A DNA stretch of 64,000 bases from an uncultured Alphaproteobacteria bacterium (GCA_947586835.1 CANPXT010000008.1:443-64442); one strand, 5' to 3'; shown: positions 13,563 through 43,593, counted from the first letter of the stretch. Notes: a model not told the origin generated them from the sequence alone. Numbers and translations are program-made.

Positions 13563-13647
13563 TACCGACTTATGCAAATAAATGCCGGAATGTGCAAATA
13601 AAAACATCTCGTGTTTTTTCGAAAATATGGTATGATGGGTGTAGAAT
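13563..13647 (+). promoter_or_regulatory. Putative activator-dependent promoter of the capsid module
   Basis: TAC/TGC at 13563, 13573, 13583, 13593 (10-bp phase); -10-like TATGAT at 13631, then GTAGAAT; same layout as 17543-17617 and 43519-43593. Confidence 0.55.
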
Positions 13648-13841
13648 CTTCAAAAGTCTCTTTTGCAAGATTTTCGATCTCTGAAATGTTTTATCAGCGG
13701 TCGTTTCAAAGCAAATAAGTCATTTATTTGCTTTTTCTTCCGCCTTTTTTTGAAAATTGAAACGTTTTTTAAAAAAGGTTATGAATTAATCGGTGTTTTT
13801 ACCGGTAAAAAGTTTCATATCAAGCATTTTAAATTTTAACC

Positions 13842-13871
13842 AAAGCGGAATTATCCTTTCTTCCGCTTTTT
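13842..13871 (+). terminator. Terminator-like hairpin in the capsid-gene leader
   Basis: AAAGCGGAA-N10-TTCCGCTTT plus TT; a second hairpin AAAGCAAATAAG/TTTATTTGCTTT at 13708-13734. Confidence 0.55.
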
Positions 13872-13939
13872 GTTATGACATAAAATGTCTTGATATTTTT
13901 TTATTTTTGTAAAAACAATTTTAATGAAAGAGAAAAAAA

Positions 13940-14902
13940 ATGGCATTAGTATATAATGATATTTTTACATCAACCCTTGAAAGTCGGACCAGAACGTTGG
14001 CCGATAACGTAACCGCCAATAATGCTTTGTTGTCCAGATTACGGGAAAAGGGTAAAATCCGTCCTCTTTCCGGCGGTTCCAAAATTATTGAAGAATTGGA
14101 ATACGGGCAGGGTGACGCCGTATGGTATACCGGTTATGATACCATTAACTATACGCCGAAACAATTATTTACTGCGGCTGAATATCAGTTAAAAATGTGT
14201 GCTGTTCCCGTTGCTGTTTCCGGTGAGGAAATATTGAAAAACAGCGGTGAAGAAGCGATGATCGATCTGTTTGAAAAACGTATTGATAACGCAATGAAAA
14301 CCATGACTAATCAAATGGCAAAAGCCGTTTACAGTGACGGAACAGGTTCATCGGGCAAAGAAATCGGCGGATTAAAATTGCTTGTGGCCGATTCACCTTC
14401 TACCGGTACGGTCGGCGGTATCGATCGCGCTGCTTCGGGCAATGAATTTTGGCGCAACAAAGCAACGCAAGTTGAACTTACGCCGGAAAACATTACTGCC
14501 GAAATGAATAAAATGTATCTGTCGTTGTCGCGCGGTACGGATAAACCTGATTTAATTGTGGCTGATGATACGCTTTATACCATGTATGAGCAAATTTTAT
14601 TACCGCAACAACGGTTTTCCGATCCGAAAATTGCCGACAGCGGTTTTGCGACTTTAAAATATAAAGGCGCCGATATTATTTTTGACGGCGGACAAGGTGG
14701 TCATTGCCCCGAAAATCATATGTATTTCTTAAATACGGATTATTTGTATTTGCGTCCGCATAAAGACAGAGATATGAAGGTGATTGAAGGCAATCGGATG
14801 GCAGTTAATCAAGATGCTCTTTATAAAATTATCGGTTGGGCCGGAAACTTAACCATGTCCAATGCGGCGTTGCAGGGTGTTTTAATTAACAACAAAGGCT
14901 AA
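13940..14902 (+). CDS. Phage major capsid protein (podovirus-type)
   Basis: N-terminal ..STLESRTRTLADNVTANNALLSRLREKG..RPLSGG..I, VYSDGTG..GKEIGGL, GTVGGIDRA...FWRN, YFLNTDYL and C-terminal GNLTMSNAALQGVL match a recognisable phage capsid family; 320 aa, intact. Confidence 0.85.
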   Translation: MALVYNDIFTSTLESRTRTLADNVTANNALLSRLREKGKIRPLSGGSKIIEELEYGQGDAVWYTGYDTINYTPKQLFTAAEYQLKMCAVPVAVSGEEILKNSGEEAMIDLFEKRIDNAMKTMTNQMAKAVYSDGTGSSGKEIGGLKLLVADSPSTGTVGGIDRAASGNEFWRNKATQVELTPENITAEMNKMYLSLSRGTDKPDLIVADDTLYTMYEQILLPQQRFSDPKIADSGFATLKYKGADIIFDGGQGGHCPENHMYFLNTDYLYLRPHKDRDMKVIEGNRMAVNQDALYKIIGWAGNLTMSNAALQGVLINNKG

Positions 14903-14930
14903 AATACATAAAATTTATATTTTTAAAAAG

Positions 14931-14970
14931 AATCGGCGGTCGAAGTTTTTCGACCGTCGGTTTTTATTTT
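14931..14970 (+). terminator. Intrinsic terminator after the capsid gene
   Basis: AATCGGCGGTCGAA-loop-TTCGACCGTCGGTT plus T-run. Confidence 0.75.
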
Positions 14971-14999
14971 CTGATTAATTTGATGAAAGGACTAAAATA

Positions 15000-15593
15000 A
15001 TGGATTCTGATTTTTTAACATTTAGAAATGTTATTGAAAATTCAAATATTGAAAAAGATACGTTTGCGCGTTTTTATGATCGTTCGGTCAAAACGAACGA
15101 AATCAATCCGAAAACGGGAGTTCCGATTTTTAAAGATGTGTGTTTTGTGGAAATACGCATTAAAAATAACAATACCGATATTTATGATCAACCGGCAAGT
15201 GAAGAAAAAAAAGCCCGTTTTCCGAATGAATATCGACAGTATTTAAAAGAAAAAGAAACGCGTCCGATCGGGACGGCCCTCGAAAACTTTTCGTTTTTAA
15301 CGGCTTCACAAATCAATACGTTAAAATTTTATCATATTGATACATTGGAAAAATTAAGTGCACTCACACCGGAACAGGCGTCAGATTTAGATATAGTCAA
15401 TGAGTATCATTTGGCGCAGAATTTTTTGGCAGGTGCCAAAAAGCAATTTGAGGTAGCCGGATGGCAAGAAAAGGTGACTCTTTTAAATCAAAAGATTCAA
15501 GAATTGGAAGCAGCGTTAAAAGCGGCGCAACAGAAAAAAACAACGTTCAAAAACACGCACAAGCGTCCTGTAAAAAGAAAAAAAACTGTTTAA
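15000..15593 (+). CDS. Conserved phage protein of the type found after this capsid family (possible HhH-like segment)
   Basis: RFY..SV...G.PIF.D..FVEI, K.RFP.EY..Y, GT.LE...LT.SQI..LK...I.TLE.L pattern; position. Confidence 0.6.
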   Translation: MDSDFLTFRNVIENSNIEKDTFARFYDRSVKTNEINPKTGVPIFKDVCFVEIRIKNNNTDIYDQPASEEKKARFPNEYRQYLKEKETRPIGTALENFSFLTASQINTLKFYHIDTLEKLSALTPEQASDLDIVNEYHLAQNFLAGAKKQFEVAGWQEKVTLLNQKIQELEAALKAAQQKKTTFKNTHKRPVKRKKTV

Positions 15594-17542: not shown

Positions 17543-17617
17543 TGCCGAAATATACCGTTTTTTGCCGATAAAAACAGTTTCTTTTTTTTATAAAGAAGCG
17601 TATAAATAAAGTATAAT
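17543..17617 (+). promoter_or_regulatory. Putative activator-dependent promoter of the tail/lysis module
   Basis: TGCCGA, TACCGT, TGCCGA at 17543, 17553, 17563; GCGTATAA-N5-GTATAAT at 17598-17617; no -35. Confidence 0.6.
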
Positions 17618-17627: not shown

Positions 17628-17657
17628 AGGTGCTTTTTTCAGAAAAGGCGCTTTTTT
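17628..17657 (+). terminator. Terminator-like hairpin in the tail-module leader
   Basis: GGTGCTTTTT-TCAG-AAAAGGCGCT (with G-U pairs) plus T-run. Confidence 0.5.
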
Positions 17658-17724
17658 AATAACAAACAATTTTCGGTTTTTCAAAGTTCCAACTTTGAAA
17701 GCCGATTTTTTTATGGAGAAAAAT

Positions 17725-18453
17725 ATGAGTACCATTTTAGAAATATGTCAAGAGGCAGCCTCTTTGGTTGCCACGCAAAAACCGACGGATTTATTTGATG
17801 AAAACGCACAACAATCTGCCATTTTTTTAAGCATTGCTAAAGACACACTGGACGGACTGCGGCGATACGGAGATTGGCAAGAATTGACAAAGGAAGGAAA
17901 ACTCTTGGTAATTCCCAATAAGCAAGTTTATTATATTCCCGACTTTTGTCCCGATTTTTTTGCTTTAATGCCCAATACCGTTTATATTCGGGATACGGCG
18001 GAAAACGTAATCGGTTCCATCTCACCCGAACAATGGCAACGTGAGCGGTTTTTTAACGGTGGAATTCAGGATTTACAATTTAAAATTCAAAATAATTGTA
18101 TTTGTTTTTTAGAGCCGCCGCGACATCGTTGTCACATTGTTTTTTATTATCGTTCGGCAGTTATTGCATTGAATTTGAAAGAAAATGATGGAAACAGCTG
18201 TGGATGCGCTTATGAAAAAACATCTCTCACGGATAATGATGATATTCCGGTTTTTGATGAATATTTGGTTAAGTTGGGTATTATTTGGCGGTGGTACAAA
18301 CGCAACGGTATGCCGTATGAAGAAGAACTGAACGAATATGAAAAGGAAGTCAAGGCAAAATTTGGCAACGGGTTATGTTTAAAAGACATCTCGTTAATCG
18401 GACGGGTTTTTCAACCATTGAACGGAGGTGTACATGTCGTATCGCATTGTTAA
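17725..18453 (+). CDS. Phage head-tail adaptor / tail tubular protein A-like
   Basis: MSTILEICQEAA start, WQEL.KE, D.D.PVFDEYLVKLGIIWRW.K.NG.PY.EE pattern typical of podoviral adaptors; ATG 17725 after GGAG. Confidence 0.7.
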   Translation: MSTILEICQEAASLVATQKPTDLFDENAQQSAIFLSIAKDTLDGLRRYGDWQELTKEGKLLVIPNKQVYYIPDFCPDFFALMPNTVYIRDTAENVIGSISPEQWQRERFFNGGIQDLQFKIQNNCICFLEPPRHRCHIVFYYRSAVIALNLKENDGNSCGCAYEKTSLTDNDDIPVFDEYLVKLGIIWRWYKRNGMPYEEELNEYEKEVKAKFGNGLCLKDISLIGRVFQPLNGGVHVVSHC

Positions 18454-19993
18454 CAGAAAAAATAAATCGGTTCATTATGTTTTGCCGTGTCCGACAAACG
18501 GGTTAAATGCGCGGGACAGTCGGGATAAAATGGCTCTGACCGACGCGCTTGTCATGGATAATTATTTTCCCTATACCACGCAGGTTTCTTTGCGGCGCGG
18601 ATATAAAAAATATATTGAAGTGCCTTTTACGGTGAAAACACTGGCGGTTTTTAATGCTTCCGCTGTCGGAAACAGTCGTTTGTTTGCCTTTGGTGACGGC
18701 ACGATATGGGATATTTCAAATCCGCAAAAACCATATGATTATCAAAAAAAATTCACCTCGAACGAATGGCGTATCTGCCAATTTAAAAATCGTTTGTTTG
18801 TCGTGAACGGAGTGGATCATCCGCAGGTTTTCATTCCGCATGAAAACGATGTCGGTTCTTGGGAAGATGTTGCTTGGACGGGTGAGGGATTGAATCCGTG
18901 TAAATTAACGGGTATTGCCGCTTCAAAACAACGCTTGTGGTTGATTGAAAATAAAAGTTTAACGGTTTGGTATTCCGAAGGCGTTTCGGAAGTGCAGGGA
19001 AAATTAATTCCGTTTGATTTCAGTACTGTTGCCACGCGTGGCGGATATTTGACGGCCGTCGGCTGTTGGACGCAAGATGGCGGGCAGGGCATTGATGATT
19101 TAACGGTTTTCTTAACTTCCGAAGGGGAAGCATTGGTATATGCGGGTTCTAATCCGAACAGTGCTGATGATTGGCACTTAAAAGGCGTGTATCAAATCAG
19201 TCGTCCGATCGGGCAGAATGCTTTATTGCAGTATCACGGTGATTTGGTTGTTATCAGTGAAGCGGGATATGTTCCGCTTTCAAAAGCATTGGCGTTACAA
19301 AACGCAACCGATGCGCAAATAGCATTCAGCGATCGTATCCAAGAGCTTGTTTTGGATCGCATTCAGAGATATCAAAATAAATACGGCTGGCAGGGTATTA
19401 TTTATCCTCGCGGCGGCTATGCTTTGTTCAATGTGCCGTTGGCAAAGGGCTTTGAGCAACATATTGTCAATACGACAACGGGTGCTTGGTGTCGTTTTAC
19501 GGGTATTGACGCCTATACATGGGCATTGTATCAAACACGCCTGTTTTTCGGCACTAAAAATGCCGTGATGCTGTTTGATGAAGGCTATACAGACGACGGA
19601 ACACCCATTGAAGGGCATGTCGAGCAGGCTTTTTGTGATTTCGGTTCGCCTTATTTGAAAAAAATACAACTTGTTAATGTGCGAACAAAATCTTCCGGAT
19701 ACTATGCTTTGCAAACTTATTGGAATACCGATTATCAAGATGAGCATATCATCAATACCGTTTCTTTTGACATGCCGAGACTTTCTCCGTGGAATGGAAT
19801 GAAGTGGGCATCAAAAGAGCAAAAAACAAAAAGTTACTGGGCAACATTGGCCGGAAAGATTTTTTCACAATGGATCGGGTGCAATGCTACCGGTTTTAAG
19901 TTTAGTTTGGTTTTTCAAACAAAAACAAAAGGAATGTTGATTGATTGGTATGAAACGGGTGTGCGTTATGAACAAGGAACGGGAATTTTATAA
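18434..19993 (+). CDS. Phage tail hub/nozzle (DNA stabilization, gp10-like) protein
   Basis: P.PTNGLNARDS...M...DALVMDNYFP....V.LRRG N-terminus; beta-rich 520 aa with GAWCRFTG; follows the adaptor. Confidence 0.72.
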   Translation: MSYRIVNRKNKSVHYVLPCPTNGLNARDSRDKMALTDALVMDNYFPYTTQVSLRRGYKKYIEVPFTVKTLAVFNASAVGNSRLFAFGDGTIWDISNPQKPYDYQKKFTSNEWRICQFKNRLFVVNGVDHPQVFIPHENDVGSWEDVAWTGEGLNPCKLTGIAASKQRLWLIENKSLTVWYSEGVSEVQGKLIPFDFSTVATRGGYLTAVGCWTQDGGQGIDDLTVFLTSEGEALVYAGSNPNSADDWHLKGVYQISRPIGQNALLQYHGDLVVISEAGYVPLSKALALQNATDAQIAFSDRIQELVLDRIQRYQNKYGWQGIIYPRGGYALFNVPLAKGFEQHIVNTTTGAWCRFTGIDAYTWALYQTRLFFGTKNAVMLFDEGYTDDGTPIEGHVEQAFCDFGSPYLKKIQLVNVRTKSSGYYALQTYWNTDYQDEHIINTVSFDMPRLSPWNGMKWASKEQKTKSYWATLAGKIFSQWIGCNATGFKFSLVFQTKTKGMLIDWYETGVRYEQGTGIL

Positions 19994-20462
19994 TTCGGCA
20001 CCGAGCATTGAACGATTGCATGAGAAAACAAACCGAACAAAGAGTATTTCCGATGTATTGTTTGACAAAGATTTGCTCACGGTGCCGTGGGTATGTCGGG
20101 GATTGGGCATTCCGCCTGATTCTCTGCGTGTTTTTATGGCATTGGCATTTGTTCGAAACGGTGTTTTGTTGGGCAGTTTGCTCTTTCATGACGGTTATGC
20201 CGAAAAAGATGTGTGGTGGACATTATATACCGTTCACCCGCTTTGGTGCACTCGACAATTTTTAAAGAAAGCCTTCCGAGCCGCTTTTGTTGATTTGAAG
20301 TGTCAACGAATTGGTGTGCTTGTGCGGGCAGATAATATCCGATCGCTGAAATTGGTTCGGCGATTGGGATTTCATGAAGAAGGTTGTTTACGTCAATTAT
20401 GTGCGGATAAAACCGACTGTTTGGCTTTCTCGATGTTGAAAGAAGAATGCCGATGGTTGTAA
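19968..20462 (+). CDS. GNAT-fold acetyltransferase of the podoviral tail module (start uncertain)
   Basis: AF..L.C.RI..LVRADN.RSLKLVRRLGF.EEG.LR RimJ-like motif; usual position after the nozzle gene. Confidence 0.75.
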   Translation: MNKEREFYNSAPSIERLHEKTNRTKSISDVLFDKDLLTVPWVCRGLGIPPDSLRVFMALAFVRNGVLLGSLLFHDGYAEKDVWWTLYTVHPLWCTRQFLKKAFRAAFVDLKCQRIGVLVRADNIRSLKLVRRLGFHEEGCLRQLCADKTDCLAFSMLKEECRWL

Positions 20463-20541
20463 ACGAGCTTCAAAAAAATAAACAGAATGCAATGGGGCAT
20501 TCGCGCGGCGGCGGTACGCAAAAAAATAAGGAGATAAAATT

Positions 20542-21213
20542 ATGAGTAAAGCAATCGGATCGGTGCTCGGAACAAATGTCAAAGCAGATACAAGCGCCGC
20601 TCAGAATTATTATAATTATTTAAACGGCATTGATACGTCATCTGCCGATCAGGCGACACAATCAATGGCCGAACAGGCGCGTCAAATGTCGGAAAATCTT
20701 TCTGATTTACCGAATTATCAATTTTCTTTGGATACTTCCGATGAAAGCGCAAAACGTGTGGAAAATGCTGTTTTTCAATCGTATATTGATAAATTGCAAC
20801 CTTTACATGAAAAACAAACGGCTGATTTGGAAACAAAATTGGCTAATCAGGGGTTAAGTGTCGGCAGTCAAGCCTATCAACGCGCCGTTAATGATTTGGC
20901 CGAACAACAAAATGCCGCTTATAATCAGGCAGCCTACAACAGTGTAACTGCCGGACAGGAAGCTTTTAACGATTATTTGAAAAATCAATTATTAGGCGCG
21001 AATTATACCAATACGGCACGGCAGGATTATTTAAACAGCATTTATAAATTGTTGCAAAACGCACCGACAAATTATGAAAAGCAATTAAATATGTATGCCG
21101 CTCAAAACGGTATGGCTCAACAACAGGCAAATGCGCGTCAACAAAGTTTTAACAACACGACCGGTGCCGTTTCCGGACTGTTACAGGCGGGCGGCTTTCT
21201 TGCCGGATTATAA
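20542..21213 (+). CDS. Putative DNA ejection/pilot protein
   Basis: Gln/Asn/Ala-rich, LANQGL..GS.AY.RA motif, Gly-rich hydrophobic ends; AAGGAG RBS; position. Confidence 0.6.
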   Translation: MSKAIGSVLGTNVKADTSAAQNYYNYLNGIDTSSADQATQSMAEQARQMSENLSDLPNYQFSLDTSDESAKRVENAVFQSYIDKLQPLHEKQTADLETKLANQGLSVGSQAYQRAVNDLAEQQNAAYNQAAYNSVTAGQEAFNDYLKNQLLGANYTNTARQDYLNSIYKLLQNAPTNYEKQLNMYAAQNGMAQQQANARQQSFNNTTGAVSGLLQAGGFLAGL

Positions 21214-21227
21214 AGAAAGGAGAGGCT

Positions 21228-21821
21228 ATGAGACAATATACATCGACGAGTGATATTATCAATATCGCTAAAATGGCGCCAAAGCCTTTGGATATGACAG
21301 CTTATGCGGGATTACCGCAATCTTTTATCAGCGGCTATATGCAAGGGCAACGTGCGCAACAAAATCAACAAAAAATACAATCTGTAACGCCGAATTATAT
21401 GCAAAAAAGCAGTGAACAAAATATAAGAATGTACAAGCTTAATGATGAGCCAGAGAAAAAATATTTTGACGCATCACATCGTACGGGTTCTCAAAAATGG
21501 CAACAAGCCGATTCAAAAACACCTTTTGAGGAAACTCCTGATCCGTTGTTGGATTATATACCCGTCAATCAACGAGAATCTTCCGATTTTTTATCGGTCA
21601 ATGATAACGGAAATGCCGTTTTGACATCAACGCCGATTTCTGCGACGCATGCTTTACCGAATGGGTCTCTTCCGGAAAATAACACACCTTATTTTGAAAA
21701 TCAGGCATTTGACGGCGTTAATTTTATGCAAACAGTTATGAGCCCCGATGTTAACATGACGGCGGATCAGCGTCGGGCAAAATTGCTTCGAGACAGCGGT
21801 TATCTTTCGTTGAATTATTAA
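21228..21821 (+). CDS. Putative ejection/internal virion protein
   Basis: SFISGYMQGQRAQQNQQ pattern; AAGGAG RBS; position in the module. Confidence 0.45.
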   Translation: MRQYTSTSDIINIAKMAPKPLDMTAYAGLPQSFISGYMQGQRAQQNQQKIQSVTPNYMQKSSEQNIRMYKLNDEPEKKYFDASHRTGSQKWQQADSKTPFEETPDPLLDYIPVNQRESSDFLSVNDNGNAVLTSTPISATHALPNGSLPENNTPYFENQAFDGVNFMQTVMSPDVNMTADQRRAKLLRDSGYLSLNY

Positions 21822-21861
21822 ATAAAACGATTTTTGTTGAAACAATTGAACGGAGAAAACA

Positions 21862-22101
21862 ATGTCAAAATCAATGGATCGATTTTATGAACTTTTGCAT
21901 AAGACAATTACAGGTATTTTAATACCGGTCGTTGTTTATTTGATGGGGGAAATCCACGACATGCAAAAAGAGGTGTCAATTTTTGAACTGCGCGTTGCAA
22001 AAGAGGCCGTACAATATGCCATGCGAACGGATATTGTTCGGGTCGAAACAAAAATTGATGAGCTTAAAACACTTATTATTCAAGAGATTAAGAAAAAATG
22101 A
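21862..22101 (+). CDS. Small membrane protein, putative holin-like
   Basis: One hydrophobic segment plus coiled coil (RVETKIDELK); overlaps the lysozyme start (ATGA). Confidence 0.55.
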   Translation: MSKSMDRFYELLHKTITGILIPVVVYLMGEIHDMQKEVSIFELRVAKEAVQYAMRTDIVRVETKIDELKTLIIQEIKKK

Positions 22102-22526
22102 CATCTGCCGTAACAACTGCTTTAAAACAACGTGTTTTGCGTCATGAAGGGTTGCGTTTAAAAGTTTATACCTGCCCGCGCGGTAAATTAACGATTGGAA
22201 TAGGGCGTAATTTGGAGGATAAAGGTATTACGCGCGCCGAAGCTTTTTATTTGCTTGAAAATGACTTAAAACACGCCGAATGTGATTGTCAAAACGCTTT
22301 TCAGTGGTTTGAAAAATTAGATACCGTTCGTCGCGGTGTTGTGATTGAAATGGTTTTTAATTTGGGTTTCCAAGGTTTTTTGGGCTTTTGTCGATTGATA
22401 AAAGCATTGACGATACAGGATTTTGATGCCGCCGCGCGCGAAATGTTAAACAGTCGTTGGGCGGTACAAGTCGGACATCGTGCCGAAAAACTGGCAAAAA
22501 TTATGCGAACGGGAAAGGAGGTGTGA
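22098..22526 (+). CDS. Phage lysozyme/endolysin (GH24, T4-lysozyme-like)
   Basis: HEGLRLKVY.CPRGKLTIGIGRNL; EMVFNLG; AAREMLNSRWAVQVG.RA..L. Confidence 0.92.
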   Translation: MTSAVTTALKQRVLRHEGLRLKVYTCPRGKLTIGIGRNLEDKGITRAEAFYLLENDLKHAECDCQNAFQWFEKLDTVRRGVVIEMVFNLGFQGFLGFCRLIKALTIQDFDAAAREMLNSRWAVQVGHRAEKLAKIMRTGKEV

Positions 22527-22527
22527 T

Positions 22528-22671
22528 ATGAAGGAACGGTTATTAGATTATTTAAAGAACAATCGAAAAAAAATCATTACTTTTTTGATTGCCGGTATTT
22601 TGGCTGCTGCCGGTATTGCAGCAGACGGTACGGTAATTGAAAACGCAATCGGTATGATTTTAGGATTTTAA
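22528..22671 (+). CDS. Small membrane protein after the endolysin (lysis accessory?)
   Basis: AAGGAGG RBS; MKERLLDYLKNNRKKIITFLIAGILAAAGIA... Confidence 0.6.
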   Translation: MKERLLDYLKNNRKKIITFLIAGILAAAGIAADGTVIENAIGMILGF

Positions 22672-22742
22672 AATTTTGAGCTTAAAAAGGGAATATATCG
22701 GTTAATCGGTATTTGTTTTTATGGCATTTAATGCTCTTTTAG

Positions 22743-23296: not shown

Positions 23297-23527
23297 ATGT
23301 CATACATTTCTAAAATGTTTACTCCTTTTCAACTACCCGACGGCAGTGAAGCTGCCTGTTCGCGGGACATCGATGCCTATTTGCGTCGCACCGGGCTGAC
23401 GGTGGCATCGGATTATTCGCCCGAAACGCTCAAAGCGATTCGGTTTGCTCGGGAAAAGGCGATGCGAGAGTCGCTTTTCGCATCTTTTATTCATCAATAT
23501 CAAAGGAAAATATGGAATGAAAAATAA
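23297..23527 (+). CDS. Small phage head-module protein
   Basis: AAAGGA RBS; PF.LPDGS....SRD..AYLRRTG resembles the small protein between portal and scaffold in related phages. Confidence 0.55.
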   Translation: MSYISKMFTPFQLPDGSEAACSRDIDAYLRRTGLTVASDYSPETLKAIRFAREKAMRESLFASFIHQYQRKIWNEK

Positions 23528-24353
23528 TCAATTAACAAGAGAACTCTTAAATAAGGCTTTTGATGAAGCCAAAAAAAAGAGTCTGACAGAAGCTGCATCT
23601 CAACCCTCGGATCAAACCGAATCGCAAACTGAGGATTCATCGGAACAAGTGCGGTTAATCAGTCAAGAATATGCCGATCGATTGGACGAATTGCCTGCCG
23701 ATTGGCGACAATATTTAATTAAGTTAGATGCCGAATATACGCAAAACAAAAAAAGACAAAGCCGACAATTGGATCATTGGTTGGAACATTTGTTCGGACT
23801 GCGTGATCAACAGGTGTGTTGTCATACAGATGAAACTCCGCGCGAATGGGTTGAAAAAATGGCGTATATCGAGCATATGCTTTGTGCGCAACCGAAACGG
23901 ACTTTAAGCATTTTGTCGCAAATATATTTATCGCCGACTCTTTCTTATTGTTCCGAATATGCACCGATTACAAATTATTATAAAAAGCGTTGTGAAGAAA
24001 ACGCAAAAAATTGGCTTTGCAAGTGTTTGTCCGAAAAAGATCAGAAGGGAAATGCCTGTTTCCCATACAAAGAAGCAGTGATTGAATTAATTTTAACATT
24101 GTTAAGCAATCGGTTGGCACCGGATATTCAAAAAGCCTATGATATGGCAGTTTGGATGAATGAAAAAACGCGGGCGCAAATGATTGATTCGGTTTTGAAC
24201 GATCGGATTCGTCAAAAAGTCGATGAAGCACGAATTGCACGCGAAAAAAGCTTTTTAACAGAGGGGGCTTTCGATATTTCGTCTCAAAATAAAACGGAAA
24301 AATCAACACGGGAACTTTTGGAAGAAGCTTTTCGAAAATATCGAACAAAATAA
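23517..24353 (+). CDS. Putative capsid scaffolding protein
   Basis: Helical and charged; similar ends TRELLNKAF / STRELLEEAF; AYDMAVWMN..TR motif. Confidence 0.62.
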   Translation: MKNNQLTRELLNKAFDEAKKKSLTEAASQPSDQTESQTEDSSEQVRLISQEYADRLDELPADWRQYLIKLDAEYTQNKKRQSRQLDHWLEHLFGLRDQQVCCHTDETPREWVEKMAYIEHMLCAQPKRTLSILSQIYLSPTLSYCSEYAPITNYYKKRCEENAKNWLCKCLSEKDQKGNACFPYKEAVIELILTLLSNRLAPDIQKAYDMAVWMNEKTRAQMIDSVLNDRIRQKVDEARIAREKSFLTEGAFDISSQNKTEKSTRELLEEAFRKYRTK

Positions 24354-24380
24354 GAAGGAAAAAAATAAGTAAATCATTCA

Positions 24381-24422
24381 GACAGAGCGTTTCGGACAGA
24401 CGGTAAGCGCTCTGTCGTTTTT
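24381..24422 (+). terminator. Terminator-like hairpin before the tail fibre genes
   Basis: GACAGAGCG...CGCTCTGTC followed by GTTTTT. Confidence 0.55.
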
Positions 24423-24441
24423 ATTTTTAAAGGAGAAAAAA

Positions 24442-25239
24442 ATGCCATTTGACAGTGAAGGAAATTTTACACGCATTCATAATTGGGAAGAAGACAGAAT
24501 TAACGGTATTGAAATTGTTACCGATCATCACGATGCGGAAGATGATAATTTTGCCGATGCCTTTAATAAAACGTTTTTACGTGACGGTCGTGTACCGATG
24601 GAAAATCATTTAAATATGGGCGGATTTCGGGTACAAAATTGTGCCGATGCCGTATCCGGTTCTGACGGCGTCACCAAAAATCAGGTAGATTCTTTAATTC
24701 AAAACAATGTGTCTGATATGAAAAATAATTTAGATAATGTTTCCTGTGTCGGTGATATTAAAGCCTCTTTGATTGATCACAATCACGGAACATGGCTGTT
24801 ATGTAACGGACAAGCGATTTCCAGAACCGAATATGCGGCGTTGTTTCAATTAATCGGCACGCGTTTTGGCAGTGGTGACGGTGTCAATACATTCAATATT
24901 CCCAACTATCAAGGTAAATTTTTACGAGGGATGGGCGGGGATTCTGCCAATAATATTGCCACAACGCAAAAAGAGAGTATTCCTTTTATAAAACACCGAC
25001 ATACGATTGTTATTGATGGAGCCATGAGTGGTGGTAACGGAAAGTTTATAACGAGAGTTTCCAACTCTTCTTCCGAAAACTATGATTATTCATTGGGATT
25101 CCTCGATTCGGCGCAAGAACCGACCATGGGTCATACATCTTTGGGTACTCAGGAAGGAAATTTATCCGTGAACATCGGAGAGCATGTGACGCCGATTAAT
25201 CAGGCCGTTTATTATTTTATTAAAGCCAAAAATGTTTAA
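24442..25239 (+). CDS. Phage tail fibre protein with tail-collar domain
   Basis: GDIK......WLLCNGQAISRTEYAALFQLIGT.FG.GDG.NTFNIP...G.FLRG collar motif; MPFDSEGNFTR..NW virion-attachment-type N-terminus. Confidence 0.88.
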   Translation: MPFDSEGNFTRIHNWEEDRINGIEIVTDHHDAEDDNFADAFNKTFLRDGRVPMENHLNMGGFRVQNCADAVSGSDGVTKNQVDSLIQNNVSDMKNNLDNVSCVGDIKASLIDHNHGTWLLCNGQAISRTEYAALFQLIGTRFGSGDGVNTFNIPNYQGKFLRGMGGDSANNIATTQKESIPFIKHRHTIVIDGAMSGGNGKFITRVSNSSSENYDYSLGFLDSAQEPTMGHTSLGTQEGNLSVNIGEHVTPINQAVYYFIKAKNV

Positions 25240-25248
25240 GGAGAAAAA

Positions 25249-25596
25249 ATGAGTCATAAAATTACGGAAAATGCCATATGGGTAACACAAGGCGATTCAC
25301 TGCCGATTTTATTGGATTTTCATCAAGATATTACCGATGCGGAAATTAAAATGCAGGTCAGAGATAACAGCGGTGAGGTGGTGATTGATAAGAAAACAAA
25401 GGATCATTTAAATGCGTTAAAAGGGCAGAGTATCATTCAGCTGACCGCTGCCGATACCAATCTTCCGATCGGTCGTTATGTGACGGATATGGAAATTACT
25501 TTTTCAGATGAGACACGTTACACTTTTTATCCGTCAAAAGTGGGTACGGTGGCTTGTTTTCATGTGGTTGATCAAATAACAAAGGAGAATTTATGA
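25249..25596 (+). CDS. BppU-like tail fibre adaptor domain protein
   Basis: I.VTQGDS....L.F..DITDA.IKMQVRD, G...I.LT..DT.L..G.Y..D.EI pattern. Confidence 0.65.
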   Translation: MSHKITENAIWVTQGDSLPILLDFHQDITDAEIKMQVRDNSGEVVIDKKTKDHLNALKGQSIIQLTAADTNLPIGRYVTDMEITFSDETRYTFYPSKVGTVACFHVVDQITKENL

Positions 25597-28037
25597 AACA
25601 AGATGTTGATATAATGACAAATTATTTGTCGGTTGATATCGGACCCGAGGTTTTATTCGTAAGCCCGGACGGCAGTTGGATTCGTTCAGGGCGTGATGAA
25701 ATTAGAGCATTTGTTGAAAAAAAAGCTAAGCCGGATATTGAGAATTTTACGGAGGAAAAGAAAGAATTATTTAATCAAAACGCACAGACAAAGACAAACG
25801 TGTTTGATGAGAATGCTCAAACCAAAACAAATGCGTTTGATGAAAATGCGACGGTCAAGACGGATGCGTTTGATCAAAATGCTCAAGCTAAAACGAATGC
25901 ATTTGATGCGAATTTTGCGGAAAAAACGGCAGATTTCGAAAAAAATGCCGAAGAAAAAATAAATACATTTAATTTGAACGCTACGGAAAAAACAAGTGTT
26001 TTTAATCAAAATGCTGTGACAAGAACAGATGTATTTAATTTAAATGCTCAAACGAAGAGAGAGGAATTTGACAATAATGTCACACTTTTAACCGAGACTT
26101 TTAATGAAAATGCTGCGATAAAAACAAGCACATTTGATAATAACGCCGCGGAAAAACTGTCAGCATTTAACAATAACGCCGTTCTTTTAACCGAAGCATT
26201 TAATGATAATGTCGCGACGAAAACAAAAGTATTTGACGATAATGCGCATGAAAAAAACGATACCTTTAATGAAAATGTGGTGGCAAAAACAAACGTCTTT
26301 AATGAAAATGCTACGGATCAAACAGATGTGTTTAATAAAAACGCTCAAGCGCAAACAGATGCGTTTGATGAAAATGCTGTGAATCAAACGAATACGTTTA
26401 ATGAAAATGTTGAAACGCAAACAGGCATATTTGATTTGCATTGCACGAATAATACAGAGGTATTTGATTCAAATTTTGCGGAAAAAATAACGGCGTTTAA
26501 TGAAAATGCAACAGAAAAAACAAATTCGTTTAATGATAATGCGCAAGAAAAGACAGAGGCATTTGATGAAAATGCTGTGAATCAAACGAATACGTTTAAT
26601 GAAAACGTTACGACTCAAACAAAAGCGTTTGATGATAATGCTGCCGTCAAAACAAATGCATTTGATGAAAATACCTTAGCTCAAACAAAAGTATTTAATG
26701 ATAATGCGCAAGAAAAGACAGAGGTATTTGATGAAAATGCCAAAACACAAACAGATGCGTTTAATGAAAACGTCGGTGTTATAACCGGTACGTTTGATGA
26801 AAACGTAGCAACTCAAACAAAATCATTTAACGATAATGCTGCGCTTTTGACCGAAACATTTGATAATAATGCTACGGAAAAAACAAACATATTTGATGAT
26901 AATGCGCAAAAAAAGACAGATGCGTTTAATGAAAATGCCAAAACACAAACGAATACGTTTAATGAAAATGTTGAGGCACAAATTACCGTTTTTGATTCGC
27001 ATTGTGGTGCTAATAGCAGTATATTTGATGAAAATGCGCAAGAAAAAATCGATACAATCAGTGATTATGTCAATCGGGTAAAAGAATTTGTCGATCAGGC
27101 AAAATCATCTGCCGAATTAGTTTCAACCTCGGTTGAAACGGTCACACAAAAAGTTGCAGATGCCGTCACTTCGGCAACAAGCGCAGCCGATTCGGCAACA
27201 AGCGCCTCTTCATCGGCCGCAACAGCCACGCAGAAAGCTACGGATGCCACTACGTCGGCAATCAATGCCGCTGCCAGTGAAGCAAGTGCATCATCATCGG
27301 CTGCAACGGCCGCGCAAAAAGCAGCAGATGCTGTTGCTTCGGCATCTGATGCCTCTGCTGTTGCAACCGCTGTCGAAACATCGGTTCATGATGCTGAATT
27401 ATGGGCTATCGGCGCAATAACCGAGCGAACGGAAGGTTCGGCAAAATATTGGGCAGAACAAGCAAAAAACAATTCGTCCGTTAATCTTCCCGTCGCAACG
27501 GAAAACGTGAAAGGCATTGTTTGTTTATCGAGTCAAAAAAACGCAAGTGACGGTACGGATGATACAACGGCCATGACACCCTACAAAACAAGGTGTAACT
27601 ATGTGGCATTAGATACAAGTCAAACCATTACCGGAGAAAAATATTTTTCCACGACTTGCTCATGCGCTTCATTAGTGGTTAATGGAAAAGCAACGATACA
27701 AACACCTGCAGTAACTTCAAACACGAATGAAGCAGCTTCAACGGCTTTTGTGCGTTCGTTCGGACTAACGGGTTACGGAATAAATGCACCGAATTATTCC
27801 GGCGCTACCGGCATTTCAAGCAGTTATACGCCAACGAAAAACGGATATATTGTTGCGTCTTGCTATATAAACGGTTGGAGCAGTGCCAACGTTACGATTG
27901 ATAACAAAACAGTGTTTTCGTTTTTCCCTCAGGGAGTTTCTCAACAACAAAGTTGTACTAACGTTTCTCCTGTTGCGAAAGGTTCTACTGTTAAGTTTGA
28001 AAACTGTGATTGTCAATTTGTTCCATGTAAAGGATAA
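25593..28037 (+). CDS. Long tail fibre with hendecad repeats, Ala/Ser-rich stalk and C-terminal binding domain
   Basis: 39 x 11-aa repeats; Stf-like A/S heptads; SAKYWAEQA; ATE..KGIV.LS...D.T.AMTP tail-fibre repeat. Confidence 0.85.
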   Translation: MKQDVDIMTNYLSVDIGPEVLFVSPDGSWIRSGRDEIRAFVEKKAKPDIENFTEEKKELFNQNAQTKTNVFDENAQTKTNAFDENATVKTDAFDQNAQAKTNAFDANFAEKTADFEKNAEEKINTFNLNATEKTSVFNQNAVTRTDVFNLNAQTKREEFDNNVTLLTETFNENAAIKTSTFDNNAAEKLSAFNNNAVLLTEAFNDNVATKTKVFDDNAHEKNDTFNENVVAKTNVFNENATDQTDVFNKNAQAQTDAFDENAVNQTNTFNENVETQTGIFDLHCTNNTEVFDSNFAEKITAFNENATEKTNSFNDNAQEKTEAFDENAVNQTNTFNENVTTQTKAFDDNAAVKTNAFDENTLAQTKVFNDNAQEKTEVFDENAKTQTDAFNENVGVITGTFDENVATQTKSFNDNAALLTETFDNNATEKTNIFDDNAQKKTDAFNENAKTQTNTFNENVEAQITVFDSHCGANSSIFDENAQEKIDTISDYVNRVKEFVDQAKSSAELVSTSVETVTQKVADAVTSATSAADSATSASSSAATATQKATDATTSAINAAASEASASSSAATAAQKAADAVASASDASAVATAVETSVHDAELWAIGAITERTEGSAKYWAEQAKNNSSVNLPVATENVKGIVCLSSQKNASDGTDDTTAMTPYKTRCNYVALDTSQTITGEKYFSTTCSCASLVVNGKATIQTPAVTSNTNEAASTAFVRSFGLTGYGINAPNYSGATGISSSYTPTKNGYIVASCYINGWSSANVTIDNKTVFSFFPQGVSQQQSCTNVSPVAKGSTVKFENCDCQFVPCKG
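25770..27056 (+). repeat. 33-bp degenerate coding repeat, 39 units in register (F[DN]xNxxx[KQ]Txx)
   Basis: Phe codon every 33 bp from 25770 to 27024. Confidence 0.93.
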
Positions 28038-28040
28038 AAA

Positions 28041-28385
28041 ATGAAAAAATATGCAAAAATTATAGATGAAAAATTAAAAACGTGTGTTGTTCTTATCCAT
28101 GATGAGGCATACGATGAATCGTTTCGTCAGGAAGGATATTCTCTTCAAGAAGTTGAACAAGGATATGATTATAATTGGTATATTAAAGGTTTTGCTCCTT
28201 CAAAACCGCAAGAATTGATTAATCGGGAACGCCGGTCTTTGTTATTACGACAGCTTGAAGAAACCGATTACATTGCTGCAAAAATTGCCGAAGGTGCTGC
28301 CACAAAAGAAGAATATGCAGATGTGATTGCCAATCGGCAAAAATGGCGTGATGAGATTAATTTGTTAGAAAACACAACATTTTAA
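28041..28385 (+). CDS. Tail fibre assembly/chaperone-like protein
   Basis: L.ETDYIAAKIAEG......YA.VIA.RQ.WRDEIN.LE motif; directly after the fibre gene. Confidence 0.7.
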   Translation: MKKYAKIIDEKLKTCVVLIHDEAYDESFRQEGYSLQEVEQGYDYNWYIKGFAPSKPQELINRERRSLLLRQLEETDYIAAKIAEGAATKEEYADVIANRQKWRDEINLLENTTF

Positions 28386-39761: not shown

Positions 39762-40466
39762 TTATCTGTCGTTGAAAGAATTTGAAACAAGTTTTTTGAC
39801 ATCAAGCGACTTTGTTTTTTTGCCGGATTTATAATCTTTTTGTGCTTGATAAGTTTCTAAAACGGAAACAATTTTTTGATACCCCGATTCTTTGGCAATA
39901 TCAAGTGGTGTTTGTCCGAATGCGTTTCGAACATTCATATCGGCACCGGCTTCCAGTAAAATAGGAATTGCTTTGATGACATTACAAGAAACAGCTTTGT
40001 GTAATGGCGTACAATTCATATTATCCCGATGATTAACATCAGCTTTTGCTTTAATAAGCATTTTTAAAGCCGCCGGAGTATCAAGCCAGACAAATGAATG
40101 CAGTAAAGTTTCGCCCTCATTATTTTGGGCATTGACATCAGCGCCTGCTTTTAAAAACGTTTCCGCCAATCCGATTGTATAATATGTAAACAAATGCGCC
40201 GGTGTGTTGCCGTTGACGTCTTTAGCATTAATATCATTACCGGTTTTGAGAAGCATATCTGTCATTTTATTCAATTCGCGCGTGGGGGTAACATTTCCTT
40301 CAATGCTTTCCGGCCCATTATAGGAAGCTAAAAAATGCAAAGCGGTTGCATGTTCATAATTATCTGTATCATTCGGGTTTGCGCCGTTTTTAATGAAATT
40401 TTTAACTGCTTTTAAATCGGCATACGAACACGCTTGATTTAAATCTTGATAGAACAATTGCTCCAT
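39762..40466 (-). CDS. Ankyrin-repeat protein
   Basis: GNTPAH, GETLLH, CTPLH, GQTPLD repeats. Confidence 0.92.
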   Translation of the reverse strand: MEQLFYQDLNQACSYADLKAVKNFIKNGANPNDTDNYEHATALHFLASYNGPESIEGNVTPTRELNKMTDMLLKTGNDINAKDVNGNTPAHLFTYYTIGLAETFLKAGADVNAQNNEGETLLHSFVWLDTPAALKMLIKAKADVNHRDNMNCTPLHKAVSCNVIKAIPILLEAGADMNVRNAFGQTPLDIAKESGYQKIVSVLETYQAQKDYKSGKKTKSLDVKKLVSNSFNDR

Positions 40467-41012: not shown

Positions 41013-41498
41013 ATGTCACACAGATTAATTGATTATCAATTGCTATTTGCTTATGAAAATAAAGATCGGCAGGAAATAAATGAATTAAAAGCCATTGGAG
41101 CATCGGATTCGATGAGGGTTTGGTGTGAAGAAAGCAAAATCTCGGCTTTGATGTTGGCATTTTTGTATAATGATATAACGGCTGCCAAAGTACTTCTTAA
41201 AATGGGTGCCGATATTAATCTTCAAGATAAAAACGGGGAAACGCCTTTAATGTATGCCGTCAGAGAGAAAAATGTCTCAGCCGTCAAACTTTGTCTTCAA
41301 AACGGTTCCAAAATCGATATTCAAAACAATAACGGAGAAACGGCATGTGATATTGCTCGGTATATGGACTGTTCTCAAACCGTTAAAATATTATCAGAAC
41401 AGGAAAAAACAGTAAAGCAGGCCCGTCAGGTGGCGCAACATTCAACCGCAAGCATTCAAAAAAATATTCGAAGGAAAGGAAAAGAACAATGCCGATAA
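41013..41498 (+). CDS. Ankyrin-repeat protein
   Basis: GADINLQDKNGETPLMYA; IDIQNNNGETACDIA. Confidence 0.9.
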   Translation: MSHRLIDYQLLFAYENKDRQEINELKAIGASDSMRVWCEESKISALMLAFLYNDITAAKVLLKMGADINLQDKNGETPLMYAVREKNVSAVKLCLQNGSKIDIQNNNGETACDIARYMDCSQTVKILSEQEKTVKQARQVAQHSTASIQKNIRRKGKEQCR

Positions 41499-41677
41499 AA
41501 AAGGAGGAATTGAATATCAAACAATTCGTTCAAACATATTTTGACAATTCAAAACCGAATGTTTGTGATTTCGATGATTTTAAACAGGTGAGAAAAACAA
41601 GAAGAAAACTTGTATTTGAAAAGCAAGAATCTGATATAAAAGGTTTTATTCGAAATTATTTTCAAAAAACGCGATAA
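41489..41677 (+). CDS. Small hypothetical protein
   Basis: 62-aa ORF overlapping the upstream stop; purine-rich RBS-like sequence. Confidence 0.45.
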   Translation: MPIKKEELNIKQFVQTYFDNSKPNVCDFDDFKQVRKTRRKLVFEKQESDIKGFIRNYFQKTR

Positions 41678-41834
41678 TTAAAACGCTTTCGGGTAAACGG
41701 ATAAACGGTTTTGCTTATCCGTTTTTTTTGTGCCTTTTGTTGATTTTCCCCTGTTGAGAGATGTTTTTTGTGCCTATGTAATTGAAGCGCTTGACAAGCG
41801 TTTGTTTTAATGATAATCATAAAAGGAGAAAAAA

Positions 41835-42299
41835 ATGACGAATTTTACATCTATTGAATTGGAAGGTATTAATGCCGAAGGGCAAAAAGAAACCTTTAAA
41901 TTGGCTGATTTTAAAGGCAAAAAGGTTGTTCTTTATTTTTATCCCAAAGATAACACATCAGGTTGCACCAAAGAGGCATGCCAATTTCGTGACAGTTATA
42001 ATCGATTGTTAAAAAAGGCGGTGGTAATCGGTGTCAGTCCCGATTCGATTGAAAGCCATCAAGAGTTTCAAAAGGCACAAAATCTGAACTTTATTTTGCT
42101 TTCCGATCCGGATCACACATTAAGTGAGGCTTTTTCTGTGTGGCAAGAAAAAAGTATGTACGGTAAGAAATATATGGGCATTGATCGCTCCACATTCATT
42201 TTAGATGAAGACGGAACCGTTCAAAAAGAATGGCGAGACGTGAAAGTGGAAGGACATGTCGATGAGGTATTAAAAGCCTTAAATGTCGATGAAAAATAA
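41835..42299 (+). CDS. bcp: Peroxiredoxin Bcp
   Basis: VLYFYPKDNTSGCTKEAC; GVSPD; RSTFILDE. Confidence 0.93.
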   Translation: MTNFTSIELEGINAEGQKETFKLADFKGKKVVLYFYPKDNTSGCTKEACQFRDSYNRLLKKAVVIGVSPDSIESHQEFQKAQNLNFILLSDPDHTLSEAFSVWQEKSMYGKKYMGIDRSTFILDEDGTVQKEWRDVKVEGHVDEVLKALNVDEK

Positions 42300-42308
42300 G
42301 GAATAAAT

Positions 42309-43457
42309 ATGGAACAAACACAATCGGGTTTAAGAAAACGTATTTGCTTTGCAGGAGCTGTGAATGTTGGAAAGTCATCGTTGATGAATGCTTTAACGGA
42401 AAATACCGTTTCGCTTGTTTCCGATATTGAAGGCACAACGACCGATTCGGTTTGCAAAGCTTATGAGATTTTAGGTCTGGGCCCGATTGTGTTTTGTGAT
42501 ACGGCAGGCTTCGGTGATACGAGCGAATTGGGCAGTGTTCGCGAAAAAACGGCGTTGCAAACGCTGGATTGTGCCGATGTCATTGTTTTGGTGCGCGTTA
42601 ATGACCGTAAGGCAGATTCTGTTTCCGAGCGTGTGGTTGAAGAAGCACAAAAACGGCATATTCCGCTTATTACGGTTTTCAATAAGTGTGATATTTATGA
42701 AGCTCCGGCAGGAGAAATCGGCATCAGTGCCAAAACAAAAACAGGACTGAATAAATTGGTGCAAGAATTAAAGCGTGTGCTTTCGAAAGCCGATGAAGAA
42801 CATTTGCTTGACGGCTTAATTGAAGCGGGGCAATCGGTTTTACTGGTCACACCGATTGATTCTTCCGCGCCGAAAGGACGCTTGATTTTACCCCAGGTGC
42901 AAATGATCAGGGAGTGTTTGGATAAACGCGTGCTCACAACGGTTGTTGAGGTGCTTGATGTTCCCAAAGCCTTTGAAAAGCAAACATTTGATTTGGTTAT
43001 TACCGATTCAAAAGTAATTCATGAAGTTTTATCCTTTGTGCCGGTCGGTGTGCGTGTTTCAACGTTTTCCGTTTTATTTGCCAAGGCAAAGGGCGATTTT
43101 CAAATTTTTTTGGAAGGAGCCGAACATATTGATCGCTTGCAGGAAAATGATACCGTTTTAATTGCCGAAAGTTGTGTGCATACAACGAACGAAGATGATA
43201 TTGCACGCACCGTCATTCCGAAGCTGATGCAAAAATTTACGGGAAAAACTTTAGTATTTGAGTTTGCGCGCGGAAAAGTTTTGCCCGATAATTTATCGAA
43301 ATATGCATTAATTGTGCAATGTGGCGGTTGTATGCTTTCGCGCGGTGAAATGATGAGCCGGGTACGCAAAAGTGTTGAAGCGGGTATCCCCATGACAAAT
43401 TACGGATTGACTATCACGAAATGTCGGTGCGGCAGTTTAAAACGACTGACTTATTAG
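42309..43457 (+). CDS. hydF: [FeFe]-hydrogenase maturation GTPase HydF
   Basis: GAVNVGKSS, GTTTD, DTAG, NKCD; PID.SAPKGRLILPQ; ESC.H...CGGCM; PMTNYG. Confidence 0.9.
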   Translation: MEQTQSGLRKRICFAGAVNVGKSSLMNALTENTVSLVSDIEGTTTDSVCKAYEILGLGPIVFCDTAGFGDTSELGSVREKTALQTLDCADVIVLVRVNDRKADSVSERVVEEAQKRHIPLITVFNKCDIYEAPAGEIGISAKTKTGLNKLVQELKRVLSKADEEHLLDGLIEAGQSVLLVTPIDSSAPKGRLILPQVQMIRECLDKRVLTTVVEVLDVPKAFEKQTFDLVITDSKVIHEVLSFVPVGVRVSTFSVLFAKAKGDFQIFLEGAEHIDRLQENDTVLIAESCVHTTNEDDIARTVIPKLMQKFTGKTLVFEFARGKVLPDNLSKYALIVQCGGCMLSRGEMMSRVRKSVEAGIPMTNYGLTITKCRCGSLKRLTY

Positions 43458-43518
43458 ATGAAATAATTTTAGCAGAATCCGGATCATTTGACATAATAAC
43501 AAGTTTTTTTCCTTTTTT

Positions 43519-43593
43519 TGCCGAAAAATGCTGATTTTTACCGAAAATACCTCTTTTCTTTTTTCCGAAAAGGGCGTATAAAGAGTGTATCAT
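43519..43593 (+). promoter_or_regulatory. Putative activator-dependent promoter of the packaging module
   Basis: TGCCGA, TGCTGA, TACCGA at 43519, 43529, 43539; GCGTATAA-N5-GTATCAT at 43574-43593; spacing identical to 17543-17617. Confidence 0.6.

Follow-up and report, generated by a model that had tools for sequence, protein, structure and literature searches.

Within a 64,000-nucleotide stretch of DNA from an uncultured Alphaproteobacteria bacterium (GCA_947586835.1 CANPXT010000008.1:443-64442; hereafter, the window), three separated modules of phage-derived genes are each preceded by a copy of the same promoter architecture. We propose, with a probability of roughly 0.6, that these three sites are paralogous copies of a portable cassette, which would place a podovirus-derived element resembling a gene transfer agent (GTA) under two tiers of control, activation and antitermination, in a genus of gut Alphaproteobacteria. 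The cassette comprises three to four direct repeats of T(G/A)CCGA, one per helical turn (up to six in relatives), a T-rich spacer at the place of the -35 element, a tandem pair of -10-like words and a short leader with a predicted intrinsic terminator. A preliminary description of the window had reported the repeats and the paired words and had suggested a common activator; our analysis adds that the cassette is conserved at orthologous positions, that its copy number tracks the scattering of the modules, and that its leaders contain terminator hairpins.

A promoter cassette repeated at three sites

Sites A, B and C lie upstream of the head, tail/lysis and packaging modules, respectively (Table 1), and all three cassettes point toward the phage-derived module immediately downstream. 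Every motif that the preliminary description had placed at these sites was found there, with the tandem pair beginning 55 bp after an in-register hexamer in all three cases; likewise, no such motif occurs upstream of the scaffold module, which starts at 23297. Measured from the second -10-like hexamer, the repeats lie ~70 to 45 bp upstream, with A- and T-tracts alternating between them at a 10-bp period, and the two -10-like words start 11-12 bp apart. The second word fits TAnnnT at each site (TAGAAT at A, TATAAT at B and TATCAT at C) and TAnnAT in all aligned orthologues. At none of the sites does either -10-like hexamer have a TTG -35 at 17 bp, whereas the housekeeping promoter at 4351-4379, with which the sites had been contrasted, is canonical (TTGCAA-17-TATAAT). 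A canonical -35 was absent throughout the interval 16-18 bp upstream, the best candidate being TCGAAA at site A (9/12), and sites B and C have only T-rich sequence at that position.

The similarity of the three sites is well past chance expectation. We compared each 76-nt site, without gaps, with every 76-nt window on both strands of the genome under study (G000, a 1.32-Mb assembly that is 83% complete; 2,630,576 windows). The number of identical positions was 46 between A and B, 45 between A and C and 53 between B and C, where the background is 20-21 +/- 4 and the best unrelated windows reach 40-43; moreover, the top two genome-wide matches of each site were the other two sites, in exact register. 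The regular expression GTATRANNNNNGTANMAT and an independently composed one, TRCCGN5TRCN7TRCCG, each had five matches in the genome, three of which were sites A, B and C. A sequence-only model (R1), built from an alignment of eight sites (A1) that included these three, gave exactly three strong matches in G000 (81.6, 75.8 and 66.5 bits, all of them members of the training set), with the next at 17.0 bits and no further copies. No additional regulon members emerged in G000 from the 13 dimer-level matches to the TnCCG repeat, two of which belong to site B, the others being coding-like.

Outside its training set, R1 scored five tail and portal sites of the relatives G011, G016 and G015 at 60.5-68.9 bits. 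Strong matches numbered three each in G011 and G016, two in G015 (76% complete) and one each in G009 and G010; weaker ones were found in G001 (39 bits), G019 (34 bits) and G017 (30 bits), and none of the other 12 genomes had a match above 22 bits. Weak extra matches in G009 and G010 were rejected as noise, as they fell in a tRNA promoter and in coding sequence. All three sites occupy orthologous positions in G011 and G016, and two do so in G015. The repeats of site A are kept in its orthologues in G011, G015 and G016 and number up to six in G009 and G010, the site B orthologues of G011 and G015 have four, and G011 and G016 retain the site C repeats. Alignment A1 has TAT.A and GTA..AT as invariant columns. 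Orthologous promoters compared in register (the off-register pairs G016_A, G010_A and G009_A were dropped) showed identities of 0.74-0.90, next to genes with a synonymous divergence (dS) of 0.5-0.9. Together, the reciprocal best matches and the retention of cassettes at orthologous upstream positions support the earlier proposal of a single cis-regulatory architecture, kept by selection, of which each of the three sites is a copy standing before a phage-derived module.

Other members of the genus carry the same layout with different repeat words. The +55 offset holds as far out as the most distantly related species, under another repeat word: in G013, whose capsid protein is 70% identical, TGTCGCA/TGACGCA repeats at 0, 10, 20 and 34 are followed at +55 by TGGTATAA-N5-GATATAAT, and the pattern TGWCGCA-N3-TGWCGCA was found at two loci in G013, at one in G005 and at none in G000, G012 or the reversed-pattern controls. 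At the second G013 locus, the distance from repeats to pair is 9 bp shorter; this cassette (L226 1500-2638, G013:C3) has no leader terminator and stands ahead of a lone 338-amino-acid (aa) gene without known function that would make up an accessory part of the regulon, apart from the main cluster. The TGCCGT/TGCCGA repeats of G001 and G017 lie ~10 bp nearer the -10, a shift of about one helical turn. G003, G012, G008 and G014 have TTGTCAC-NN-TTGTCA as their repeat word, and after it come a T-tract, GGGTA(A/G)AGTAAG(A/G)TAAAAT and a near-identical leader with a terminator. Of the 21 distinct matches listed for this TTGTCAC pattern, ten have the full canonical cassette and the others are variant or unrelated, and several of the cassettes are immediately upstream of tail, portal and fibre modules. 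Matches outnumbered those of the reversed control in G003 (12 vs 3) and G012 (10 vs 5), were no commoner than the control in G014 (4 vs 4) and G008 (5 vs 5), and were absent from G002 (0). Wherever a G012 cassette has a clear downstream open reading frame (ORF), the two share one orientation. A near-identical ~130-bp unit of promoter, leader and terminator is present about ten times per genome in G003 and G012 (L099-L117, L152-L156). Some of these copies precede genes without a homologue in the window (277, 241, 379 and 684 aa), which suggests a larger regulon in that clade. Across these genomes, the architecture is constant and the putative operator word is clade-specific, being TGCCGA, TG(A/T)CGCA or TTGTCAC.

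Copy number tracks the scattering of the modules. A single cassette heads the whole compact cluster in G009 and G010, where no promoter separates the GroES/portal genes from the scaffold gene ahead of them; G013 has one cassette at its cluster and one at the accessory gene; and the scattered genomes G000, G011 and G016 have one for each separated module, the scaffold/fibre module excepted.

Predicted leader terminators and a proposed control in two tiers

The leaders contain hairpins that the preliminary description did not include (Table 1), and these predicted terminators point to a second tier of control, by antitermination. The 10-bp stems of sites B and C, with 3-4 GC pairs and a following T6-T8 run, have the features of intrinsic terminators, and the site B leader folds with z = -4.3 (0/200 shuffles fold as well). 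The site A hairpin, which begins 63 nt past the -10, is weaker than either. Among 15 promoter instances, a hairpin with a T run starts 10-17 nt past the -10 in nine, namely sites B and C of G000, the tail and portal sites of G011 and of G016, the tail site of G015 and the capsid sites of G010 and G009. Strict terminator-like hairpins number 327 in 2.63 Mb (both strands), or 0.124 per kb, corresponding to a chance of 0.0015 per 12-nt window. The 15 instances exclude a minus-strand match of the underlying regular expression at 24464, a false positive in the region of the fibre-gene start, and that expression missed the G013 promoter. Leaders are less alike than promoters (ungapped identity of 0.33-0.73 vs 0.74-0.90), and pairing is kept despite the drift, with compensatory changes in 3/9 pairs of A4 (site C and its orthologues) and 1/10 of A3. 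Because the gene upstream of site B is divergent, the two terminators there can act only on transcripts from this promoter. Furthermore, with the hairpin starting ~5 nt into the transcript, a competing RNA structure would have no space to form, and escape would need a factor that acts on the polymerase.

In the first tier of the mechanism that we propose, a dedicated, sequence-specific DNA-binding protein would sit on the phased repeats along a single face of the helix, from where it would recruit sigma-70 polymerase to the -35-less promoter. The binding of one activator on successive helical turns, as suggested in the preliminary description, is plausible, and we favour it because the promoters have no -35, because species either share the register or differ in it by about one helical turn, and because the repeat word differs by clade. 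In the second tier, the promoter-proximal terminator would halt any polymerase that had not acquired resistance to termination from a factor loaded at the promoter. Loading or pausing would likely take place at the tandem -10-like pair, and GTATAA/GTATAAT may accordingly serve as a loading or pause element rather than as a plain -10. Antiterminated polymerase would then pass beyond the tail module, across the terminators and the tRNA gene, and also transcribe the scaffold/fibre module, which would explain how that module manages without a cassette. Such a double lock would keep a lethal, lysozyme-encoding particle programme silent until induction, whereupon a dedicated host regulator would switch on the modules together.

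Several observations weigh against this mechanism. Either -10-like word may be the real -10; the first lacks its final T at sites B and C, and in the TTGTCAC clade the first word has a plausible -35 (TTGCGT, 17 bp), where G000 has none. Among the other 6/15 promoter instances, five hairpins start at +63 to +177 and one instance has none by the strict finder, and the capsid-site leaders of the G000 clade have weak or distant hairpins only. Repeats ~70-45 bp upstream of the second hexamer are too distant for loading of the Q type, so that two factors, or one bifunctional factor, have to be assumed. Read-through is not required for the scaffold/fibre module, since a weak sigma-70-like match (TTTAAA-16-TAAAAT) belongs to the module itself. 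The association of operator word with clade follows phylogeny, with ~2-3 changes, and so provides no statistical evidence of co-evolution. As for antitermination factors, the lambda-Q and 82-Q families (PF03589, PF06530), Q families being very diverse, had no match at E<=0.1 in the 83%-complete G000, and a second NusG was not found beside the one that this assembly contains.

A different account would make the cassette an element of negative control or DNA architecture, in which the second -10 is constitutive, the repeats are the target of a repressor or silencer akin to RogA, MucR or H-NS or else simply induce curvature as an UP element does, and the terminators only damp transcription. A- and T-tracts alternating at a 10-bp period are the classic recipe for bent DNA, and repressors operate in GTA and tailocin systems, as the accessible parts of two reports describe (RogA, PMC11150451; PrtR, PMC4684702). 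We consider this account quite unlikely: repressor sites usually overlap the core promoter, from which these repeats are well separated; conservation falls on the hexamer with its G/C positions rather than on the A/T spacer, and from clade to clade this hexamer changes as a whole; and a missing -35 beside canonical housekeeping promoters argues for a recruiting factor.

The absence of a -35, together with the conservation of the tandem element in every clade, would also suit an alternative-sigma or phage-type promoter, in which GTATAA-N5-GTATAAT is read by an extracytoplasmic function (ECF)-like or unrecognised phage-derived sigma and the repeats are accessory. G000 encodes three sigma factors, including an ECF-like one of 164 aa (C2:52373-52867) and one of 292 aa. 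This is decidedly improbable, since every instance of the second word makes a good sigma-70 -10 (TAnnAT), the usual ECF promoter has a distinct -35 and a 16-17 bp spacer rather than an 11-bp direct repeat, and the TTGTCAC clade has a fitting sigma-70-like promoter (TTGCGT-17-TAAAGT). At lambda PR', the -10 occupies -12 to -7 and the pause element +1 to +6. The spacing of 11-12 bp between the words agrees with that layout, and a pure lambdoid-Q-type reading would take the first word as the -10, the second as a sigma-dependent pause at ~+1 to +6, and a single Q-like antiterminator as the only factor, with the repeats as no activator site. A promoter-proximal terminator is present, and Q21 uses 6-bp direct repeats (PMC6606751, in the text available). 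We give this reading as little credence as the preceding one: the elements QBE, ZBE and ABE, as described in the accessible portions of PMC11150451 and PMC6606751, lie between -35 and -10, not ~70-45 bp upstream; the first word has no conserved final T at B and C; and no Q family was detected in G000. That the cassette is a selfish dispersed element of the MITE or REP kind without a regulatory role is very improbable, for although the near-identical ~130-bp copies in G003 and G012 exceed the reversed control as given above, the three G000 copies are co-oriented with their modules and the G012 sites with such downstream ORFs as are clear, the cassettes stay at orthologous positions from species to species, neither terminal inverted repeats nor target duplications were seen, and G000 has no copies elsewhere.

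Returning to activation and antitermination, candidates for the regulator come from a small transcription-factor inventory in G000, which includes one GerE protein (131 aa, C2:11894-12289) and four OmpR-type winged-helix proteins. An atypical OmpR-type protein of 195 aa, present in 21/21 genus genomes, was rejected, as its divergence is unlike that of the operator clades and it never lies beside a module. The LuxR-type DUF6362 protein (PF19889; 120 aa, C1:123859-124269), likewise present in 21/21 genus genomes, stands out among the candidates as a lead, a weak and doubtful one. Its profile matches the NarL C-terminal domain in PDB (E=1.2e-4), in agreement with a C-terminal domain of the GerE four-helix type; the AF2 model has a pLDDT of 85, and Foldseek matches to DosR and sigma region 4 are weak. 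The recognition helix reads CERTAR in all nine TGCCGA-type genomes and (S/T)IRQxR in the TTGTCAC clade, and is different in G013 and G005. Against this candidate, the helix pattern is confounded with phylogeny, the family occurs in 3/4 sister genera that have no capsid, and the G000 gene adjoins a VirD4/TraG-like gene and PBP1A, which are conjugation-like neighbours. PF19889 had no match in a Caulobacter control genome, tblastn with the G000 protein found no phage, tblastn with the G013 paralogue found one virome contig, and our literature search found no paper, supplements aside, that mentions DUF6362. Directly upstream of the G000 gene are the VirD4/TraG-like gene (727 aa) and three unknown genes (C1:119284-123722; L199 5284-9722), which may be the remnant of a conjugative element. 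A virome contig (L196, MT837927.1, unverified) has a DUF6362 paralogue beside 11-bp iteron-like AAGCAAA repeats.

The phage-derived modules across the genus

The element to which the modules belong appears to be podovirus-derived, vertically inherited and GTA-like. The capsid gene is present in 19/20 other species genomes of the genus, in 0/4 sister genera and in 1/16 other families (39% identity); the portal is found in 19/20 and the tail protein in 18/20 of the other genus genomes, and all three are single copy throughout. Relative to the closest species, the capsid has a dN/dS of 0.04, the tail protein one of 0.07 and the portal one of 0.12-0.14, with dS between 0.5 and 0.9. This genus-wide conservation and a dN/dS of 0.04-0.14 bear out the earlier claim of a maintained element rather than prophage debris. 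The gene content is of the GTA type, with structural, packaging and lysis genes under purifying selection and vertical inheritance, and no integrase or replication genes were found in the element where checked. The nearest phages to the capsid are Mx8, Bradyrhizobium ppBjS10J-1 and the Brucella Tb group.

In G013, the element forms one ~16-kb cluster (small ORF, TerL, GroES, portal, scaffold, capsid, tail, fibre and lysozyme) that is flanked directly by host genes (PgpA, and GT2 with DUF308). Homologues in G000 exist for 16/23 ORFs of this cluster, and all 16 are within the window. The gene order of G010, on one contig, is a permutation of that of G013, and the scattered order is common to G000 and the independently assembled G011. 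A 17-kb virome contig of 51% GC (L157, MT835830.1, unverified) contains the whole compact structural cluster; this contig and L196 could be true phage relatives or packaged host DNA.

Table 1 Cassette features and phage-derived modules in the window (positions counted from its first nucleotide)
Feature	Position	Strand	Details
Site A repeats	13563..13598	+	TACCGA 13563, TGCAAA 13573, TGCCGG 13583, TGCAAA 13593; direct, 10-bp period
Site A tandem -10-like pair	13628..13647	+	TGGTATGA 13628-13635, N5, GTAGAAT 13641-13647; no -35
Site A leader hairpin	13708..13739	+	A/T-rich, terminator-like, with T run; within 292-nt leader 13648-13939
Head module (site A)	13940..15593	+	Capsid gene 13940-14902, strong terminator 14928-14965, 197-aa gene 15000-15593
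Site B repeats	17543..17568	+	TGCCGA 17543, TACCGT 17553, TGCCGA 17563; direct, 10-bp period
Site B tandem -10-like pair	17598..17617	+	GCGTATAA 17598-17605, N5, GTATAAT 17611-17617
Site B leader hairpins	17628..17712	+	Two, 17628-17653 and ~17673-17705, each with T run
Tail/lysis module (site B)	17695..22672	+	PHROG and Pfam matches; small ORF read directly
Scaffold/tail collar/fibre module	23297..28385	+	Without own cassette
Site C repeats	43519..43544	+	TGCCGA 43519, TGCTGA 43529, TACCGA 43539; direct, 10-bp period
Site C tandem -10-like pair	43574..43593	+	GCGTATAA 43574-43581, N5, GTATCAT 43587-43593
Site C leader hairpin	43608..43638	+	10-bp stem and T8 run; begins 15 nt past -10
Packaging module (site C)	43657..47513	+	GroES-like 81-aa gene, portal, 90-aa gene, large terminase

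The capsid gene downstream of site A matches the major head protein family phrog_9953 (E=2e-105), and the 197-aa gene matches phrog_20268. The terminator between them is very strong, with a 17-bp stem directly 3' of the capsid gene; it fits a high ratio of capsid to other proteins, with read-through by modified polymerase only. The tail/lysis module encodes a tail protein, a 521-aa structural protein, a GNAT acetyltransferase, a virion protein, a 197-aa unknown protein, a lysozyme and a small membrane ORF. The acetyltransferase gene (phrog_4470, 19941-20462) lies inside the tail module and occupies the same place in G010, G013, G001, G019 and the virome contig. The scaffold/fibre module begins 0.77 kb downstream of the tail module, past two bidirectional terminators and a tRNA gene on the opposite strand, and its homologues sit inside the single operon of G013. 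The 3' end of this tRNA gene (23028-23100, minus strand) and the adjacent bidirectional terminator hairpin are duplicated ~230 bp upstream (22790-22830, within 22740-23100), an arrangement resembling the att-type scar that an old integration would leave between the tail and scaffold modules.

In the packaging module, the portal belongs to phrog_12082 (E=7e-109) and the large terminase to Terminase_3 (E=6e-34), and the 90-aa gene is possibly the small terminase. The GroES-like gene (43657-43902) that opens this module precedes the portal in most genomes examined. Host genes separate the modules, including BamE, a GT2 glycosyltransferase, a tRNA and ~15 kb with an ABC-F ATPase and HydF; an Rfam search of the window returned four tRNAs and nothing else. 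Two ankyrin-repeat proteins are also encoded between the modules (39762-40466, minus strand; 41013-41498, plus strand); such proteins are unusual in bacteria, host-associated lineages being where they typically occur. At 7732-8220 lies a type IV pilin-like gene, and copies of its N-terminal 45-67 residues are found near the phage-derived modules in G001 and G019.

Known systems and biological meaning

By analogy, the cassette would resemble GafY/GafZ, lambdoid Q and PrtN/P-box in its working, and several defining features of these families are absent from it. The accessible part of PMC11150451 describes CcGTA as activated by GafY with integration host factor (IHF) and antiterminated by GafZ. 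As with CcGTA and its GafYZ, and with the GafA of RcGTA, the host here is alphaproteobacterial and the particle genes are phage-domesticated (PMC11150451); as in CcGTA, a far-upstream activator site is combined with a promoter-embedded element and terminators to bypass, and accessory loci would share the activator. Unlike CcGTA, as far as that text describes it, the present cassette lacks a palindromic ZBE in the interval from -35 to -10, has phased direct repeats in place of the single YBE and IHF site, and carries its terminator in the leader, 10-17 nt past the -10, rather than after the first gene. Unlike RcGTA, the capsid here is Mx8-like and of the podovirus type (phrog_9953), not part of an HK97-type head-tail cluster. 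The N-terminal domain of GafY and GafA is similar to domain IV of DnaA. An extra DnaA_C-like domain was not found in a profile search of G000, where DnaA itself is the sole match to PF08299 (DnaA_C).

The likeness to lambdoid Q lies in a late promoter with a -10-like word beside the -10 and a predicted promoter-proximal intrinsic terminator. Direct repeats are likewise shared with Q21, which binds a direct-repeat QBE beside a -10-like pause element through a sigma-R4-like helix-turn-helix that contacts 6-bp repeats, according to the available portion of PMC6606751; unlike those repeats, described there at -21/-13, the present ones have a 10-bp period and lie much farther upstream. Unlike lambdoid Q promoters, the present promoter has no -35 and so probably needs activation too. 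Pseudomonas AlpA was grouped with lambdoid Q in this comparison, and no member of the Q or AlpA families was found in G000, where no search was aimed at the AlpA Pfam. PrtN and the P box of Pseudomonas aeruginosa pyocins offer another parallel, with one activator and repeated boxes before several separate phage-derived or bacteriocin loci that fire together, as the accessible part of PMC4684702 sets out. Host class, box sequence and particle type differ, the tailocins of that system being headless. The P box has a four-repeat structure, and we know of no leader terminators described for its regulon.

FpGTA of Faecalibacterium, the sole published gut podovirus-like GTA candidate that our search found, is comparable in being a podovirus-like candidate from a gut bacterium (PMC12946183). 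It differs in belonging to Firmicutes and in being a compact 10.5-kb operon, and the available part of its report describes no shared promoter cassette. A literature search found no paper, supplements aside, that joins gene transfer agent with RF32. A fuller scenario may be set beside these systems: an undescribed podovirus-derived GTA would have become fixed in a gut genus, its fragments keeping or gaining the cassette; a factor of the sigma-R4/LuxR type, possibly DUF6362, would read the repeats, with helix and operator word co-diversified in three clades; and the same or a partner factor would antiterminate, independently of GafYZ. We hold this chain tentatively, as one that is rather unlikely to be right in every link.

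The clade-specific word serves to find regulon members, with two loci in G013 and ~10 in G012 and G003, and the cassette provides a defined bait for pulling down the regulator. If two-tier control is correct, the element would be a natural example of a host that keeps a fragmented, domesticated virus working by giving each piece the same lock, an activator-dependent promoter followed by a terminator. It would also represent a second, independent alphaproteobacterial case of activation and antitermination jointly controlling a GTA-like element, and very little is known of such elements either in this podovirus-like particle lineage or in the gut of animals and humans.

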